Shown: in pieces, positions 21,069 through 33,727 of the stretch
Numbering within the stretch: position 1 is the first letter of the stretch
Layout: the number at the start of each line of letters is the position of its first letter
Assembly (NCBI GenBank): GCA_036985935.1
Contig: BTQP01000003.1
Location: 1 to 33,727, forward strand
DNA from: Acidimicrobiia bacterium
GTDB lineage: Bacteria; Actinomycetota; Acidimicrobiia; Spongiisociales; UBA5794
Length of the DNA stretch: 33,727 nt
Reading direction: 5' to 3'
Made by a program: the position numbers and the translations under genes
Notes under the pieces: generated by a model
What the model saw: the letters and a program-made list of their open reading frames with translations, nothing else
What the model was told of the DNA's origin: nothing
Database searches by the model: none

Positions 21069-21590
21069 CTATTGAGAGACCGGAGGCTCCTCAGCGGGCG
21101 GCAAAGCCTTGTGCAGCTCGGCTCTTGCCTCCGTCACGTACCGATAGAGCTCACCAAGAATCGTTTCGGCCTCGGAGAGGTGCCGTTCCGCGTAATCCTC
21201 GGCTTCAAGTCGAATCCGTCTGGCTTCGTTCTCAGCGCTCCGCACCAGAGTGTTTGCCTCTTCAACGGCCTCTTGAACGATGTAGTTTTCTGAGATCAGC
21301 TGCTCGGACTCCACCTTCGCTGCAGAAATGACCTCGCGAGCCTTCTCGTTCGTCCGGGTGATATACGATTCGCGCTCGCGAACCATCCATCGCGCGGCAC
21401 GTACCTCCTCCGGCAACTCCTCTGCGGCTGCATGCAACCTGTCGAGCAGGTCCTCCTGGTTGATCATTACGTTGCTCGACAGGGGCACGGCGCGGGCGGC
21501 CTCGATCTCTGAGATGAGATCCTCGATGAGTTCAGAGATCTTGCCGGGGACGGGTGGTGTCTGGCGTGATTCGTCCGGATGGTCGATCAT
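21069..21590 (-). CDS. sepIVA: Coiled-coil DivIVA-like protein, probable SepIVA orthologue
   Basis: IEAARAVPLSSNVMIN..LL..L....EELPEEVRAARW followed by a coiled coil and EAEDYAERHL. Located between coaD and DUF177, as in Streptomyces. Confidence 0.65.
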   Translation of the reverse strand: MIDHPDESRQTPPVPGKISELIEDLISEIEAARAVPLSSNVMINQEDLLDRLHAAAEELPEEVRAARWMVRERESYITRTNEKAREVISAAKVESEQLISENYIVQEAVEEANTLVRSAENEARRIRLEAEDYAERHLSEAETILGELYRYVTEARAELHKALPPAEEPPVSQ

Positions 21591-24934: not shown

Positions 24935-25123
24935 ATGGCATACAGATGTGAAGTCTGCGGCAAAGAACCGTGGACAGGCAAACAGGTCTCGTTCTCGCAC
25001 AAACGTTCTTCCAAGACGTGGCGACCCAACATCCAGAAGATCCGTGTCAAACATGGCAGCAACTCACGTCGCGCACGGGTTTGCACTTCGTGCATCAAAG
25101 CTGGCAAGGTCGAGAAGGTATGA
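24935..25123 (+). CDS. rpmB: 50S ribosomal protein L28 (Zn-binding C+ form)
   Basis: MAYRCEVCGK...VSFSHKRSSKTWRPNIQ...VCTSCIKAGKV. Strong SD AGGAGG upstream. Confidence 0.96.
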   Translation: MAYRCEVCGKEPWTGKQVSFSHKRSSKTWRPNIQKIRVKHGSNSRRARVCTSCIKAGKVEKV

Positions 25124-25332
25124 GCCAGGGCGTCGTCAAGACGTATGACGATGCAACAGGCATCGGCTTGATCGTTCGCGACGACGACCGCAGCGAGGTT
25201 CTCCTGAAACCGGGCAGCCTCGACGGATCACTGTTCCGATTCCTTCGACAGGGACAGAGGGTCCGATTCGACCAATCAGACGATGAGAAGCCCGTCGCAT
25301 CGAACCTTCGATTCGGTTCAGACGGCTACTGA
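25120..25332 (+). CDS. Cold-shock-domain-like small OB-fold protein with degenerate RNP motifs (70 aa)
   Basis: MSQGVVKTYDDATGIGLI...FRFLRQGQRVRFD...PVASNL parallels CspA (GTVKWFN..KGFGFI...FKTL.EGQ.V.F...P.A.NV). ATG overlaps the rpmB stop (ATGA). Confidence 0.75.
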   Translation: MSQGVVKTYDDATGIGLIVRDDDRSEVLLKPGSLDGSLFRFLRQGQRVRFDQSDDEKPVASNLRFGSDGY

Positions 25333-25613: not shown

Positions 25614-25633
25614 CAAGTTCCTTCAGAGCTGGC

Positions 25634-26677
25634 TCAGCGAATGGCCAGGTTGCCGCGTTCGTCGTACCGCTCGATGGCCGCGTCCACGAGCCGGCTGCAC
25701 AGTTCTGGATACGTCAATCCGGATGCAATCCACACTTTGGGAAATCCTGATATCGATGTGAAACCCGGCAAGGTATTCACCTCATTGAACAGGAACCTGC
25801 GAGTGCCGTTTTCGTAGAAGAAATCGACCCGTGCAAGACCGGACAGGCCAAGCATCTCGAATATTCGCTCCGCGAGATCCCTCACCTGTCTCGACGCCTC
25901 AAGGGAAAGTTTGGCGGGCGCCTCGAACGAGCTCGTGTCGTCTTGATATTTCGCGTCGTATGTGTACCAACCGTCAGCGACGAGAACTTCGCCGGGAACC
26001 GAACTGATGGGTCCGTCAAGCACGCCAACCTCGATCTCACGAGCGGAGATGGCCTTCTCGACGACGACTTTCGTGTCGTATCGAAAAGCTTTGCTTATCG
26101 CTTCCTTCAAGGCGCCCTCGTCCGTCGCCTTTGAGATCCCCACCGAAGAGCCTTGTGCCGAGGGTTTCACGAATACCGGCAACCCGAGCGCTGTCATCGC
26201 CTCGCCGATAGCGATACTGGGATCGTCATCCCACTCCTTGCGGCGCACCGTGATCCATGGCGAGGTTGCGATTCCCTTCGAGGCCACGATCTGCTTCGTG
26301 AGATCCTTGTCCATGGCCAGTGCGCCACCGAGAACTCCACACCCGACGTAGGGAAGGTTGCACGTCTCGAGAGCACCTTGCACCGTCCCGTCCTCTCCAT
26401 ACGGTCCGTGGAGGACAGGGAACGCAACATCGAACTCGATCACGTCGTCCCCAACGGCGAGTGAACCTTCGGGAACCAGCAGCTCGACCTGGCGTCCTTC
26501 TGCTCGGAATGGTCGGAACGAGGGATCTGCGAGAAACCACGACCCGGATCGGTCGATGCCAACGGTAATCACCCGGTGTTTTGACTCGATGAGAGCGTCG
26601 TGCACGGACACTGCGGACGCGCACGAAACCTCATGTTCAGATGATCGTCCGCCGAAGAGAAGAAGCACTCGAGCCAT
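25634..26677 (-). CDS. ddl: D-alanine--D-alanine ligase
   Basis: FGGRSSEHEVS, FPVLHGPYGEDGTVQG, MDKD, FVKPSAQGSSVGI, YTYDAKY and NEVNTLPGFT. Confidence 0.96.
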   Translation of the reverse strand: MARVLLLFGGRSSEHEVSCASAVSVHDALIESKHRVITVGIDRSGSWFLADPSFRPFRAEGRQVELLVPEGSLAVGDDVIEFDVAFPVLHGPYGEDGTVQGALETCNLPYVGCGVLGGALAMDKDLTKQIVASKGIATSPWITVRRKEWDDDPSIAIGEAMTALGLPVFVKPSAQGSSVGISKATDEGALKEAISKAFRYDTKVVVEKAISAREIEVGVLDGPISSVPGEVLVADGWYTYDAKYQDDTSSFEAPAKLSLEASRQVRDLAERIFEMLGLSGLARVDFFYENGTRRFLFNEVNTLPGFTSISGFPKVWIASGLTYPELCSRLVDAAIERYDERGNLAIR

Positions 26678-31777: not shown

Positions 31778-32395
31778 CTAGATCTCGTCCAGCAGTCTCT
31801 GACGTTTCTCCTCGTACTCCTCCTGGGAGATGAGGCCCTCGTCGAGCAGCTCTGCGAGTTTCTTTATCGAATCCGCGGCATGCGGTTTGAGTTCCTGTGT
31901 CGTCTCGGTCCGACCCGACAGATCCATCGTTCTCCGCTCACGAACCTTGTAGAGCGTCGTCTGGAACCGGTCGGGTCGAGGGATGTTGTAGAAGGTGCTT
32001 TGCCCCGACGAACCGGCCGACTCGATCAACAGGTCACCGGCCCCAAGCATCCGTTCGAAGACCGTCTGGGAGAAGTTCACGTTGGTGATGTTCTCGAGCG
32101 GGATCTCGACCCCGGATTGAGCGATGAGACCGGTCCGGGTGATCAGACGCTCTGTGGTCAGCACATATCTCGTGAACCACCAGTTGATCAAGGGTCGCAC
32201 AATGAGGTAGAGACCGGCGAGCAATACCACGAGTGAAATCCAGACGGCTGCGTCGTCGGTGAACCCGAACGCCAAACCGATAACGATCAGGACGCCGAGG
32301 AACCACAAGAACGGGATGAACAACAATTTCCAATGAGGACGAAACGACGTAACGATCGTCTCGTCAACACTCAACGCATCTTCGGGCCAAGACAT
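31778..32395 (-). CDS. Membrane protein with bacterial PH domain and C-terminal SHOCT domain
   Basis: RPHWK, two TM helices, YVLTTERLITRTGLI...IPLENI...Q...ERMLGAGDLLIESAG and C-terminal KKLAELLDEGLISQEEYEEKRQRLL. Confidence 0.88.
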   Translation of the reverse strand: MSWPEDALSVDETIVTSFRPHWKLLFIPFLWFLGVLIVIGLAFGFTDDAAVWISLVVLLAGLYLIVRPLINWWFTRYVLTTERLITRTGLIAQSGVEIPLENITNVNFSQTVFERMLGAGDLLIESAGSSGQSTFYNIPRPDRFQTTLYKVRERRTMDLSGRTETTQELKPHAADSIKKLAELLDEGLISQEEYEEKRQRLLDEI

Positions 32396-32440
32396 GAGGC
32401 CAGCATAGAGAACTCGCGCAGCGAGCGCATTGACTACATG

Positions 32441-32490
32441 AACGCGAGAAACCCCAAGGAAGCCGAAGCCCCCTTGGGGTTCTCCACGTT
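32441..32490 (-). terminator. Long terminal hairpin / putative intrinsic terminator of structured RNA 1
   Basis: Minus strand AACGUGGAGAACCCCAAGGGGGC-UUCG-GCUUCCUUGGGGUUUCUCGCGUU forms about 22 bp. Its G-U wobbles are valid only on the minus strand. No long U-tract follows. Confidence 0.7.
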
Positions 32491-32791
32491 GCCTCGGGCC
32501 TTTCGGCCTCCGGTTCCGCTGCGTCCCTTCCGGTCTTTCAACCGTCCGTTTCGCTGCTCCGCAAGCGGAGCTGGATGTGGATCGAAACCCGCACCCTCCT
32601 CATGTGCCTCGTCGACCGAAGCCGAGCGGGCGGGGCCTAAGCCCTCGACACCCGAAGGTGCCTCACAAGGTCCCCGATTCGTCTCCGAACCGGCTGCCGG
32701 CTGTGACACCGGCCGCCTCCGGTTTCCCGTTGGCGCTCGCTCCCGAGTTGCCCCGTTTGCGAGCCGCTCAGGGTTTCCCCCTTGCGGTAAT
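32441..32791 (-). ncRNA. Candidate ~350-nt tetraloop-rich structured non-coding RNA (family not recognised)
   Basis: About 13 consecutive hairpins on the minus strand, capped by GAAA x4, GCAA, GAGA, UUCG x4, CUUG, UUAG and one larger loop. G-U pairs fix the strand. There is a candidate promoter upstream and a terminal hairpin, and no credible ORF. Confidence 0.8.
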
Positions 32792-32796
32792 AGTCA

Positions 32797-32824
32797 ATGT
32801 TGCAGACTTTGTAGCGTTCGGCAA
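32797..32824 (-). promoter_or_regulatory. Putative sigma-70-type promoter for structured RNA 1
   Basis: Minus strand TTGCCG (32824-32819), N16, CAACAT (32802-32797). The first hairpin starts 10 nt downstream of the -10. Confidence 0.5.
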
Positions 32825-32890
32825 GCCAGATCGCTGGTTCGTTTTCGCGAGTCACGACGAGTTTTCGCGCTCGGCTGGTAGCTTTCCCAG

Positions 32891-33541
32891 ATGCGGCGCA
32901 AAACCGGTCGATTTCCCGTCAAAATTCGATTCGTATGGGCACTTTTGCTCGCATTTGCGATGGTCGCGGCCGGATGCACAGTTAGCCAGTCACCTCTGCC
33001 GGACACGACAACAACACGACAGCCAGCGGATGTGCCCGTGGCCGATGAGCTCACACTTCACACCGAAGGCATCGGTCCGTACGAGGTCGGGGACGAGGCC
33101 GAGTTCGTCATTGCAGGCATCACAAACGCGATCGGCGGCTGGGACGCCGACTCCTCGGATGAGGCCTCTCCCGTTCAGCTCCCCGAATGCGGGGATGCTT
33201 CCTCGAGGGTCGTGTCATGGGGTTCACTCGCGCTCGTGTTCGTACGGGGGTACGCACGCGAGACGTTCGTGAGTTGGTCGTTTGGTTTCGATCCCGTATC
33301 GGGGAACTCCGACGACCTACGTGGGCTCGGTCTGCGCACCGAAGCAGGAATCGGACTCGGCGCGACGAGACAGGAGCTCGAAGATGCGTACCGAGCAGGA
33401 CTCGAAATCACGAATCAGCCTGCCATCGATTCAGCGATCTTCGCCATCGACAAAGCACAGGAACCGCACCTCTCAGGCAAACTCGATTCTTCCGGGCCAC
33501 AAGGCATCGTCGACCTCATCCAGATCGAGCCGACATGCTGA
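32891..33541 (+). CDS. Hypothetical lipoprotein
   Basis: Basic N-terminus, hydrophobic stretch ending VAAGC (lipobox-like), Pro/Thr linker and an acidic globular domain. -10-like TAGCTT lies 6 nt before the ATG. Confidence 0.8.
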   Translation: MRRKTGRFPVKIRFVWALLLAFAMVAAGCTVSQSPLPDTTTTRQPADVPVADELTLHTEGIGPYEVGDEAEFVIAGITNAIGGWDADSSDEASPVQLPECGDASSRVVSWGSLALVFVRGYARETFVSWSFGFDPVSGNSDDLRGLGLRTEAGIGLGATRQELEDAYRAGLEITNQPAIDSAIFAIDKAQEPHLSGKLDSSGPQGIVDLIQIEPTC

Positions 33542-33551
33542 GAGAACTCCC

Positions 33552-33604
33552 AAAAGAGAAACCCCGAGGAAGCTCGACCGAAGTCTCGCCCTCTCGGGGT
33601 TCTC
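33552..33604 (-). terminator. Terminal hairpin plus U-tract (intrinsic terminator) of structured RNA 2
   Basis: Minus strand GAGAACCCCGAGAGGGC-GA-GAC-UUCG-GUC-GA-GCUUCCUCGGGGUUUCUC-UUUU. Confidence 0.75.
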
Positions 33605-33727
33605 AATTGAAGTGAACAAGTTCACTCCAGTCCGAGATTCGCCAGTTGCCCGACTCCTCCCGGGGTGTTCTCGTCGCATTCGCAGACCGAAGTCGTCGCC
33701 TGTGACCAGAACCCGCTGCTCCGAACC
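33552..33727 (-). ncRNA. 3' part of a second tetraloop-rich structured RNA (5' end beyond the window)
   Basis: Minus-strand hairpins GAC-UUCG-GUC, CCGGGA-GGA-GUCGG-GCAA-CUGGC-GAA-UCUCGG and GGAGUGAA-CUUG-UUCACUUC, then a terminal hairpin homologous to that of RNA 1. Confidence 0.68.

Follow-up and report, generated by a model that had tools for sequence, protein, structure and literature searches.

A predicted family of structured, tetraloop-rich RNAs in one order of Acidimicrobiia

In a stretch of 33,727 nucleotides (nt) from an Acidimicrobiia bacterium of the order Spongiisociales (assembly GCA_036985935.1, contig BTQP01000003.1, positions 1 to 33,727; hereafter the window), a 495-nt gap between two homology-supported genes (32396-32890) very probably encodes, on the minus strand, a stand-alone structured RNA of a family that is not in Rfam. 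Our comparisons show that the predicted fold of this RNA, which we call RNA-1, is kept by compensatory changes, that its putative promoter and its 3' hairpin are conserved, and that it belongs to an apparent multi-copy family restricted to one order. An initial annotation of the window had already proposed a non-coding RNA at this place. Our analysis bears out that observation and, within the reach of computation, its interpretation. The finding is larger than that proposal: the family is order-wide and multi-copy, a second copy lies in the window itself, and the presumed operator is common to nrdJ and dnaA, genes that are discussed below.

The minus strand of a 360-nt stretch at this locus folds with a predicted energy of -185.1 kcal/mol (z -6.07), which is not equalled by any of 100 dinucleotide shuffles; the plus strand of the same stretch reaches -148.1 kcal/mol (z -2.57), with one of 100 shuffles as good. 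Shuffled controls on both strands, which the initial annotation had proposed as a check, thus favour the strand that it named. The minus-strand hairpins that it listed are all present in the sequence, and its limits of 32441 and 32791 were close to the 32443-32788 indicated by conserved signals. If the comparative structure is counted together with a lineage-specific hairpin at 32492-32513, RNA-1 comprises 13 hairpins. Their loops are, in order, GAAA, GCAA, GAAA, GUCACA, GAGA, UUCG, UUAG, UUCG, UUCG, CUUG, GAAA, GAAA and UUCG. The proposal that the loops are of the canonical GNRA, UNCG and CUUG classes holds for 11 of the 13 (six GNRA, four UUCG and one CUUG), the other two being UUAG and the hexaloop GUCACA.

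DNA searches revealed full-length homologues of RNA-1, with 68-80% identity, in six of the nine other genomes of the genus; three further genera of the family yielded the 3' hairpin only. In its own genome RNA-1 is single-copy. The 3' hairpin hardly varies within the genus, and a different genus has a copy that is 100% identical across 41 nt. A scan of the genomes of 185,579 species with a pattern of this hairpin returned 43 stretches, all from metagenome-assembled genomes and nearly all labelled Acidimicrobiia, Acidimicrobiaceae, Actinomycetes or Actinomycetota, with a few other labels. Within the genus, hairpin H12 is a 37-column insert in the alignment, shared by the window's genome with its nearest relative only. 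One species of the genus (G002, L007:1404-1593) carries a tandem duplication of the whole four-way-junction module, which adds about 85 nt; RNA-1 therefore tolerates duplication at the level of modules.

Support for the fold itself comes from pair counts in two alignments. In the genus alignment (six sequences, 99 hand-drawn pairs), standard pairs make up 95.8% of cells, and changes on both sides are seen in 13 of the 99 pairs, compared with 2-5 in slid-partner controls; only one of 500 column shuffles reaches 13. In a core alignment of 27 sequences, which covers the three hairpins of the junction and H9, 90.7% of cells are paired and both-side changes affect 17 of 24 pairs, a count not attained in any of 500 shuffles and compared with 4-6 in slid controls, although the hand-drawn structures derive partly from the window sequence, and this favours them over the slid controls. 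RNAalifold recovered only three helices from the core alignment, because MAFFT mis-registers the bulges, and hand-drawn structures were therefore supplied to the pair counter. Both-side changes also occur in five of the eight pairs of the H11 apical stem. By eye, H1 covaries across other genera (CCGC/GCGG, CUGC/GCAG, UGCA/UGCA, CCGG/CCGG), and in listings of the copies the apical stem of the 3' hairpin covaries between them. That the 3' hairpin is invariant in the 27-sequence set follows from the fact that these loci were found by it. The initial annotation had suspected a multiloop. The four-way junction corresponds to it, and its three hairpins H6-H8 are well supported. The closing helix is moderately supported: it cannot be counted by column because the alignment shifts, and in a duplex-energy comparison the duplex is possible in all 27 sequences (mean -10.1 kcal/mol versus -6.8 for shuffles), with only 8 of 27 beating 95% of their own shuffles.

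Conserved signals also flank RNA-1. Two TCGCGAAAA boxes, 20 bp apart, lie upstream of its conserved sigma-70-type promoter, and we presume this double box to be a transcription-factor site. At all informative loci the layout of the family promoter is CGCGAAAA(C), 12 nt, CGCGAAAA(C), followed by -35 and -10 elements at set spacing. Among 72 unique family promoters, 62 have TTG[AC] beginning exactly 17 nt past box 2, and 67 have a (T/C)ANNNT hexamer that starts at +40/+41, 17-18 nt past the -35 element. In the fetched loci the double box is found upstream of 39 of 53 hairpin occurrences. From the positions of the boxes, the -35 and the -10, transcription of RNA-1 would begin near A32788, the base with which H1 opens, and the boxes would lie at about -58 and -78 from this predicted start, two helical turns apart. 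Judged by these predicted signals, RNA-1 has a promoter and a terminator of its own at conserved positions, as a stand-alone small RNA should. The tail past the 3' hairpin (TTTCTCGCG, e.g. 32443-32451) looks similar to the promoter box read as its reverse complement, with two bases added.

The same double-box promoter appears to drive other hairpin-rich RNAs in the order, each of which ends in the same type of 3' hairpin. There are 1-6 copies per genome, often in tandem groups of two to four. The last copy commonly precedes a gene for a bPH_2 protein (10 of 20 fetched loci), and for the upstream copies of tandem arrays the next element is another RNA promoter. A generalised 3' hairpin pattern matches 161 of 201 sampled genomes of the order, and 120 of the 140 that are of high quality, with five reversed-pattern control matches. 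It was detected in only 4 of 14 genomes of family f11 and in 0 of 2 of family f4. When genomes with a completeness of 90% or more were sampled across the class, the 3' hairpin was present in 85 of 94 genomes inside the order and in 2 of 206 outside it, and these last two matches look like chance. Across the class, 144 of 401 genomes contain the double box, compared with two reversed-pattern control matches; it is concentrated in the order of the window and in one further family, whose genomes are of about 1 Mb and 30% GC. Both the double-box and the 3' hairpin tallies include one unpublished genome (G298), a single count on which no claim depends.

Taking each RNA as the sequence between double box and 3' hairpin, we obtained 74 unique family RNAs of 146-708 nt (median 314). 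Among their 826 predicted loops, 579 are GNRA (371), UNCG (199) or CUUG (9); after mononucleotide shuffling these classes account for 29 of 510 loops. One hairpin plan recurs as a module, for which we used a strict definition: a stem of at least 3 bp, all-purine loops of 2-3 nt on both sides, a stem of 2-5 bp and a GNRA loop. The 74 RNAs contain 103 such modules, versus 0.03 per RNA after shuffling. The number ranges from 0 to 4 per RNA, with 57 RNAs carrying at least one and 12 at least three, and in 43 of the 74 a strict module lies no more than 12 nt from the predicted 5' end. GA/GA, GAA/GGA and AA/GA are the commonest pairs of module loops. In RNA-1, three hairpins (H1-H3) satisfy the strict definition, and H11 and H12 contain looser versions of the module. 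In terms of these predicted elements, what defines the family is its promoter, a hairpin module at the 5' terminus, a body of hairpins with GNRA and UUCG loops that varies between members, and the 3' hairpin. In another genus (L009, minus strand 907-1106, genome G021; also L034), a short paralogue that measures about 200 nt and has a double box to itself is located directly upstream of RNA-1, and its 3' hairpin has a longer stem in which A-U pairs are replaced by G-C in a compensatory manner.

The second copy in the window, RNA-2, is the 3' part of a family member that is cut by the contig end; full-length copies in relatives are about 410 nt long and have their own double box. RNA-2 is convergent with the plus-strand gene at 32891-33541. 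It is therefore no leader, and this supports the stand-alone reading for the family. The RNA-2 3' hairpin faces the stop codon of that gene and may also terminate it.

None of the 4227 covariance models of Rfam 15 matches the window at gathering score, nor do any match the loci of 15 relatives. Permissive scoring of 32250-33050 gave a viral frameshift site, two plant miRNAs and DUF3800-XI, all at E>=2 and thus at chance level, in agreement with the initial annotation, which had assigned the RNA to no known family; nothing meaningful was found at E<=10. RNase P RNA (RF00010), which it had set aside, indeed has no match at the locus, and the genome's own copy is on contig C196 (273.9 bits). Covariance models of transfer-messenger RNA (tmRNA), signal recognition particle (SRP) RNA, OLE, ROOL, GOLLD and HEARO match neither the window nor the loci of the 15 relatives, and ARAGORN found no transfer RNA (tRNA) and no tmRNA in the window. 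The model of 6S RNA (RF00013) has no match in the window or in the 80.9%-complete genome, with a control that was also without a match in Corynebacterium. As to raiA RNA (RF03072), the locus gives no match at E<=10; the lack of a match in the genome is a weak negative, since in the control the model matched none of 14 genomes. Such RNAs are present in Acidimicrobiia according to PMC10861870. A literature search found no description of RNA-1 or of its 3' hairpin. We rate the family as a new RNA class, not in Rfam 15, whose generic kind, the stand-alone structured small RNA, is known.

Outside the RNA loci, the double box may point to a link with replication. The only other CGCGAAAA pair in the window's genome, with a 19-nt period, is on contig C9 (15791-15817, minus strand, L113), upstream of nrdJ, the gene of the class II (B12-dependent) ribonucleotide reductase. 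By reading, two inverted repeats resembling candidate NrdR boxes lie between it and nrdJ. In the small-genome family f16, a sister lineage (L064-L092; genomes of about 1 Mb, GC about 0.30), a single double box stands about 200 nt upstream of dnaA; the family 3' hairpin was not found in 12 of these genomes. Past the double box, nearer dnaA, stands a conserved DnaA-box-like word. One genome of family f10 (G401) has six double boxes on its contig C1, and in the three stretches of it that were examined (L099, L100) the family 3' hairpin does not follow the double box; the double-box regulon may be larger in this family. We infer that a dimeric DNA-binding activator would act at the double box and couple the RNAs to replication-linked genes. 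A literature search for the box as a known operator gave no matching motif, one match to a box string being a list of Escherichia coli NagC sites only.

What might such an RNA do? We suppose that RNA-1 would act in trans as a stable structural RNA, kept long-lived by the hairpins at both ends. Our best guess, a tentative one that we consider possible rather than probable, is that it serves as a protein-binding scaffold or decoy. The purine-loop/GNRA modules would then be multiple docking sites for one partner, and probably are, because their number varies between species. The level of the RNA would be set by the factor that binds the double box, and it would track the replication or growth state of the cell, since the same motif precedes nrdJ and, in the sister lineage, dnaA. 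Taken as a whole, in a judgement that blends the stand-alone RNA with the scaffold or decoy mechanism, this explanation seems to us fairly plausible. One may speculate further, with rather little confidence, about order-wide modular "tetraloop-chain" RNAs, of 1-6 genes per genome, activated by a factor with dnaA and ribonucleotide reductase among its other targets. Being multivalent, they might titrate a replication- or growth-linked protein or assemble into RNA or RNA-protein bodies. If true, this would be a new RNA class linked to replication-cycle control in Acidimicrobiia.

Several observations weigh against this explanation or parts of it. The promoter and start of RNA-1 are predictions; a simple consensus scan called no promoter at RNA-1, and a simple terminator scan did not call the 3' hairpin, reporting only a weak site at 32415-32429. 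The near-invariance of that hairpin exceeds what a terminator needs. A search of RNA libraries decides neither way: only two runs were found, and they contain 0.05 and 0.04 of the sampled words. One contig of 162 nt matches over 32596-32770, inside the body of RNA-1, at less than 90% identity, and another of 190 nt is identical over 32441-32482, i.e. the 3' hairpin; both derive from relatives, and both libraries can carry DNA, which limits them as transcript support. RNA-1 proper is, as far as a covariance model of its four-way junction and H9 (R1) can tell, much narrower than the whole family. Strong R1 matches occur only in close relatives: of 151 genomes drawn from the class, 5 were matched, and of 41 drawn from the family, 7 (the window's genome included in both, and few first-look candidates scored per genome); fetched loci of other families give weak matches only (E 0.004-1). 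By this comparison, the bodies of different members either lack homology or have diverged too far for it to be traced. No gene for CsrA (PF02599), Hfq or L7Ae was found in the 80.9%-complete genome; the scaffold or decoy idea thus draws only on the repetition of the module, and a partner, if any, is outside the usual small-RNA proteins. Finally, the tight linkage to the downstream gene, discussed next, could mean a functional link.

This gene encodes a predicted membrane protein with bPH_2 and SHOCT domains and lies downstream on the same strand, 33-151 nt past the adjacent RNA, in 30 of 31 unique loci. As other families of the order show this arrangement too and the 3' hairpin is terminator-like, one could regard RNA-1 as the structured 5' region of the bPH_2/SHOCT mRNA, with the hairpin as the regulated terminator of a riboswitch or attenuator. 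We consider this very unlikely. A cis leader would belong to a gene without a promoter and would always stand before a same-strand gene. However, a TANNNT begins 12-13 nt before the start codon (a gap of 6-7 nt to the ATG or GTG) at 38 of 38 loci, in the window as TATGCT 6 nt before the ATG, and no Shine-Dalgarno-like sequence was noticed ahead of the gene at these loci. In Actinomycetota, a -10 element directly before the start codon marks a leaderless mRNA with its own promoter. The pattern suggests that the bPH_2/SHOCT gene has a conserved mRNA of this kind, and RNA-1 is therefore unlikely to be its leader. Moreover, other members of the family precede another RNA promoter or converge on an opposite-strand gene, RNA length and module number vary freely, and no competing pairing partner for the 3' hairpin was noticed, its sequence being nearly invariant. 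Independent transcription is thus suggested by the conserved promoter and terminator, the downstream gene's own predicted promoter and the convergent paralogue. The locus might encode no RNA at all and represent a coding stretch or palindromes acting at the DNA level, such as protein-binding sites or repeat elements. Four open reading frames (ORFs) of 182, 231, 91 and 72 aa do cross the region on both strands, which is usual in GC-rich DNA, but none has a Pfam match at E<=0.1. The closest relatives differ by indels of 1, 2, 4 and 37 nt, which argue against a reading frame. Substitutions preserve base pairs, and the strand asymmetry of the fold z-score has been noted above. Some of the conserved pairs are G-U, for instance two in the 3' hairpin in all six genus sequences; these fit the minus strand only and likewise speak against coding. 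The initial annotation had pointed to such one-strand wobbles and had named conservation of a reading frame among homologues as an outcome that would speak against an RNA; what is conserved is base pairing, and the coding or DNA-level alternative is almost certainly wrong.

Two further alternatives accept a stand-alone RNA and differ in its function. GNRA loops and purine internal loops mediate tertiary contacts in large RNAs. RNA-1 might be an RNA-only machine, a defined three-dimensional object built alone or as a multimer through contacts between GNRA loops and helices, either a ribozyme or similar to the ornate large RNAs whose assemblies consist of RNA alone. The high density of GNRA loops in the family, the conserved four-way junction of RNA-1 and purine internal loops at fixed distances from tetraloops all fit this idea. 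Nonetheless, we find it unlikely: the bodies vary widely in length and content, which is unusual for one precise tertiary fold, no large-RNA family of Rfam matches, no long-range pairing or pseudoknot was detected, and by eye RNA-1 has no copy of what we take to be the classical 11-nt tetraloop receptor. The other alternative is a functional analogue of 6S RNA or Ms1, that is, an abundant RNA of the growth-phase kind with RNA polymerase, core or holoenzyme, as its binding partner. Both of these RNAs form a long irregular rod with a large central bubble, and Ms1 is about 300 nt long. An analogue of them would be a stand-alone RNA of abundant type; the size of RNA-1 (about 350 nt) lies within the Ms1 range, the operator common to dnaA and nrdJ suggests possible growth-linked expression, and the genome gave no 6S match, within the limits of completeness and control given above. 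However, there is no 6S match at the locus either, and RNA-1 is a chain of short local hairpins, 13 in number, with one four-way junction and not a rod, as the initial annotation had correctly held. The abstract of the Ms1 paper describes Ms1 only as structurally related to 6S RNA. The neighbouring genes for a HAD-IB hydrolase and an oxidoreductase by which PMC9130861 partly defines Ms1 are absent at RNA-1, which is flanked by the bPH_2/SHOCT gene and an unassigned gene. On balance, such an analogue is quite improbable, and a scaffold or decoy remains our preferred, if tentative, view of RNA-1.

Comparison with known systems helps to place the family. CsrB/RsmZ sponges are stand-alone RNAs with their own promoter and terminator and many repeats of a protein-binding hairpin with a GGA loop, often in several paralogues, and their partner is CsrA. 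The present family resembles them in its predicted promoter and terminator, in a repeated hairpin module of variable number and in having several paralogues per genome. It differs in that the repeat is a purine internal loop plus a GNRA tetraloop instead of a GGA-containing loop, and in the lack of a detected CsrA gene mentioned above. Like OLE, raiA, ROOL and GOLLD, RNA-1 is several hundred nt long with many conserved helices, is lineage-restricted and has a function not deducible from sequence. OLE RNA adjoins a membrane-protein gene, and so does RNA-1. Unlike those RNAs, whose Rfam models have no match here, the present family is multi-copy, with very variable bodies held together by promoter, 5' module and 3' hairpin. 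Streptococcal csRNAs, which depend on CiaR, and Qrr RNAs are base-pairing regulators of about 100 nt with single-stranded seeds. The likeness lies in several RNA genes per genome, often adjacent, with the same direct-repeat operator at a fixed distance from the -35/-10 elements and a similar terminator, whereas the RNAs described here are 146-708 nt long and almost fully paired.

Large, conserved, structured bacterial RNAs without known function are rare, and past cases have led to new biochemistry. Here, roughly nine in ten good genomes of an order of abundant, mostly uncultured environmental Actinomycetota carry such a predicted family. Its build is unusual, with about 70% of predicted loops being GNRA, UUCG or CUUG and with a repeated purine-loop/GNRA module, and so is its unity, which comes from a common promoter and 3' hairpin and not from a common body. 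The double box in turn exposes an uncharacterised regulon that includes nrdJ and, in the sister lineage, dnaA, and offers a route to the regulator and to the conditions of expression. In current annotation these loci are blank or covered by spurious ORFs, which a covariance model would fix.

Table 1. Positions of RNA-1, its predicted parts and signals, and adjacent features in the window
Feature	Positions	Strand	Basis or remark
RNA-1, predicted structured non-coding RNA, 346 nt	32443..32788	-	ends from conserved -10 spacing and 3' hairpin
Double box, CGCGAAAAC twice	32841..32869 (32861-32869, 32841-32849)	-	20-nt period; each holds the palindrome TCGCGA
Predicted sigma-70-type core promoter	32796..32824	-	-35 TTGCCG (32819-32824), 17-nt spacer, -10 AACATT (32796-32801)
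5' hairpin array H1-H5	32674..32787	-	sequence, genus pair counts, strict module search (finds H1, H2, H3)
H1	32764-32787	-	stem / purine internal loop / short stem / GNRA module
H2	32736-32763	-	stem / purine internal loop / short stem / GNRA module
H3	32715-32734	-	stem / purine internal loop / short stem / GNRA module
H4	32696-32713	-	
H5	32674-32693	-	
Four-way junction enclosing H6 (UUCG), H7 (UUAG) and H8 (UUCG)	32598..32670	-	H6-H8 covariation, 27 sequences
Closing helix of the four-way junction	32664-32670 with 32598-32604	-	duplex-energy test
H9, UUCG loop	32574-32595	-	7 of 9 pairs change on both sides
H10, CUUG loop	32556-32571	-	
H11, GAAA loop, purine internal loops	32521-32554	-	apical stem covariation
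H12, GAAA loop	32492-32513	-	extra module, only window's genome (G000) and nearest relative (G003)
3' hairpin, UUCG loop, then UUUCUCGCG	32446..32484	-	conservation; presumed terminator and family signature
Membrane protein gene, bPH_2 and SHOCT domains	31778..32395	-	Pfam; own predicted -10 TATGCT at 32402-32407
Gene of unrecognised family, 216 aa	32891..33541	+	lipoprotein-like N-terminus (by eye); between RNA-2 and RNA-1
RNA-2, 3' part of a second predicted family member	33553..33727	-	cut by contig end at 33727; 3' hairpin 33560-33599

The description of the RNA-1 gap as the largest in the window was right as to its 495 nt and is approximate as to its rank, because the rough ORF tiling picked a spurious ORF in the RNA-1 region itself; no other gap in that tiling exceeds 345 nt. 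The next-largest gaps, at 25617-25961 (345 nt), 21332-21586 (255 nt) and 25108-25325 (218 nt), are without an Rfam or tRNA match. The 216-aa gene has no Pfam match. A homologue of it is divergent from RNA-1 in 18 of 31 unique loci, the window counted. Further neighbours of RNA-1 are genes for an M90 peptidase and an m5U methyltransferase.

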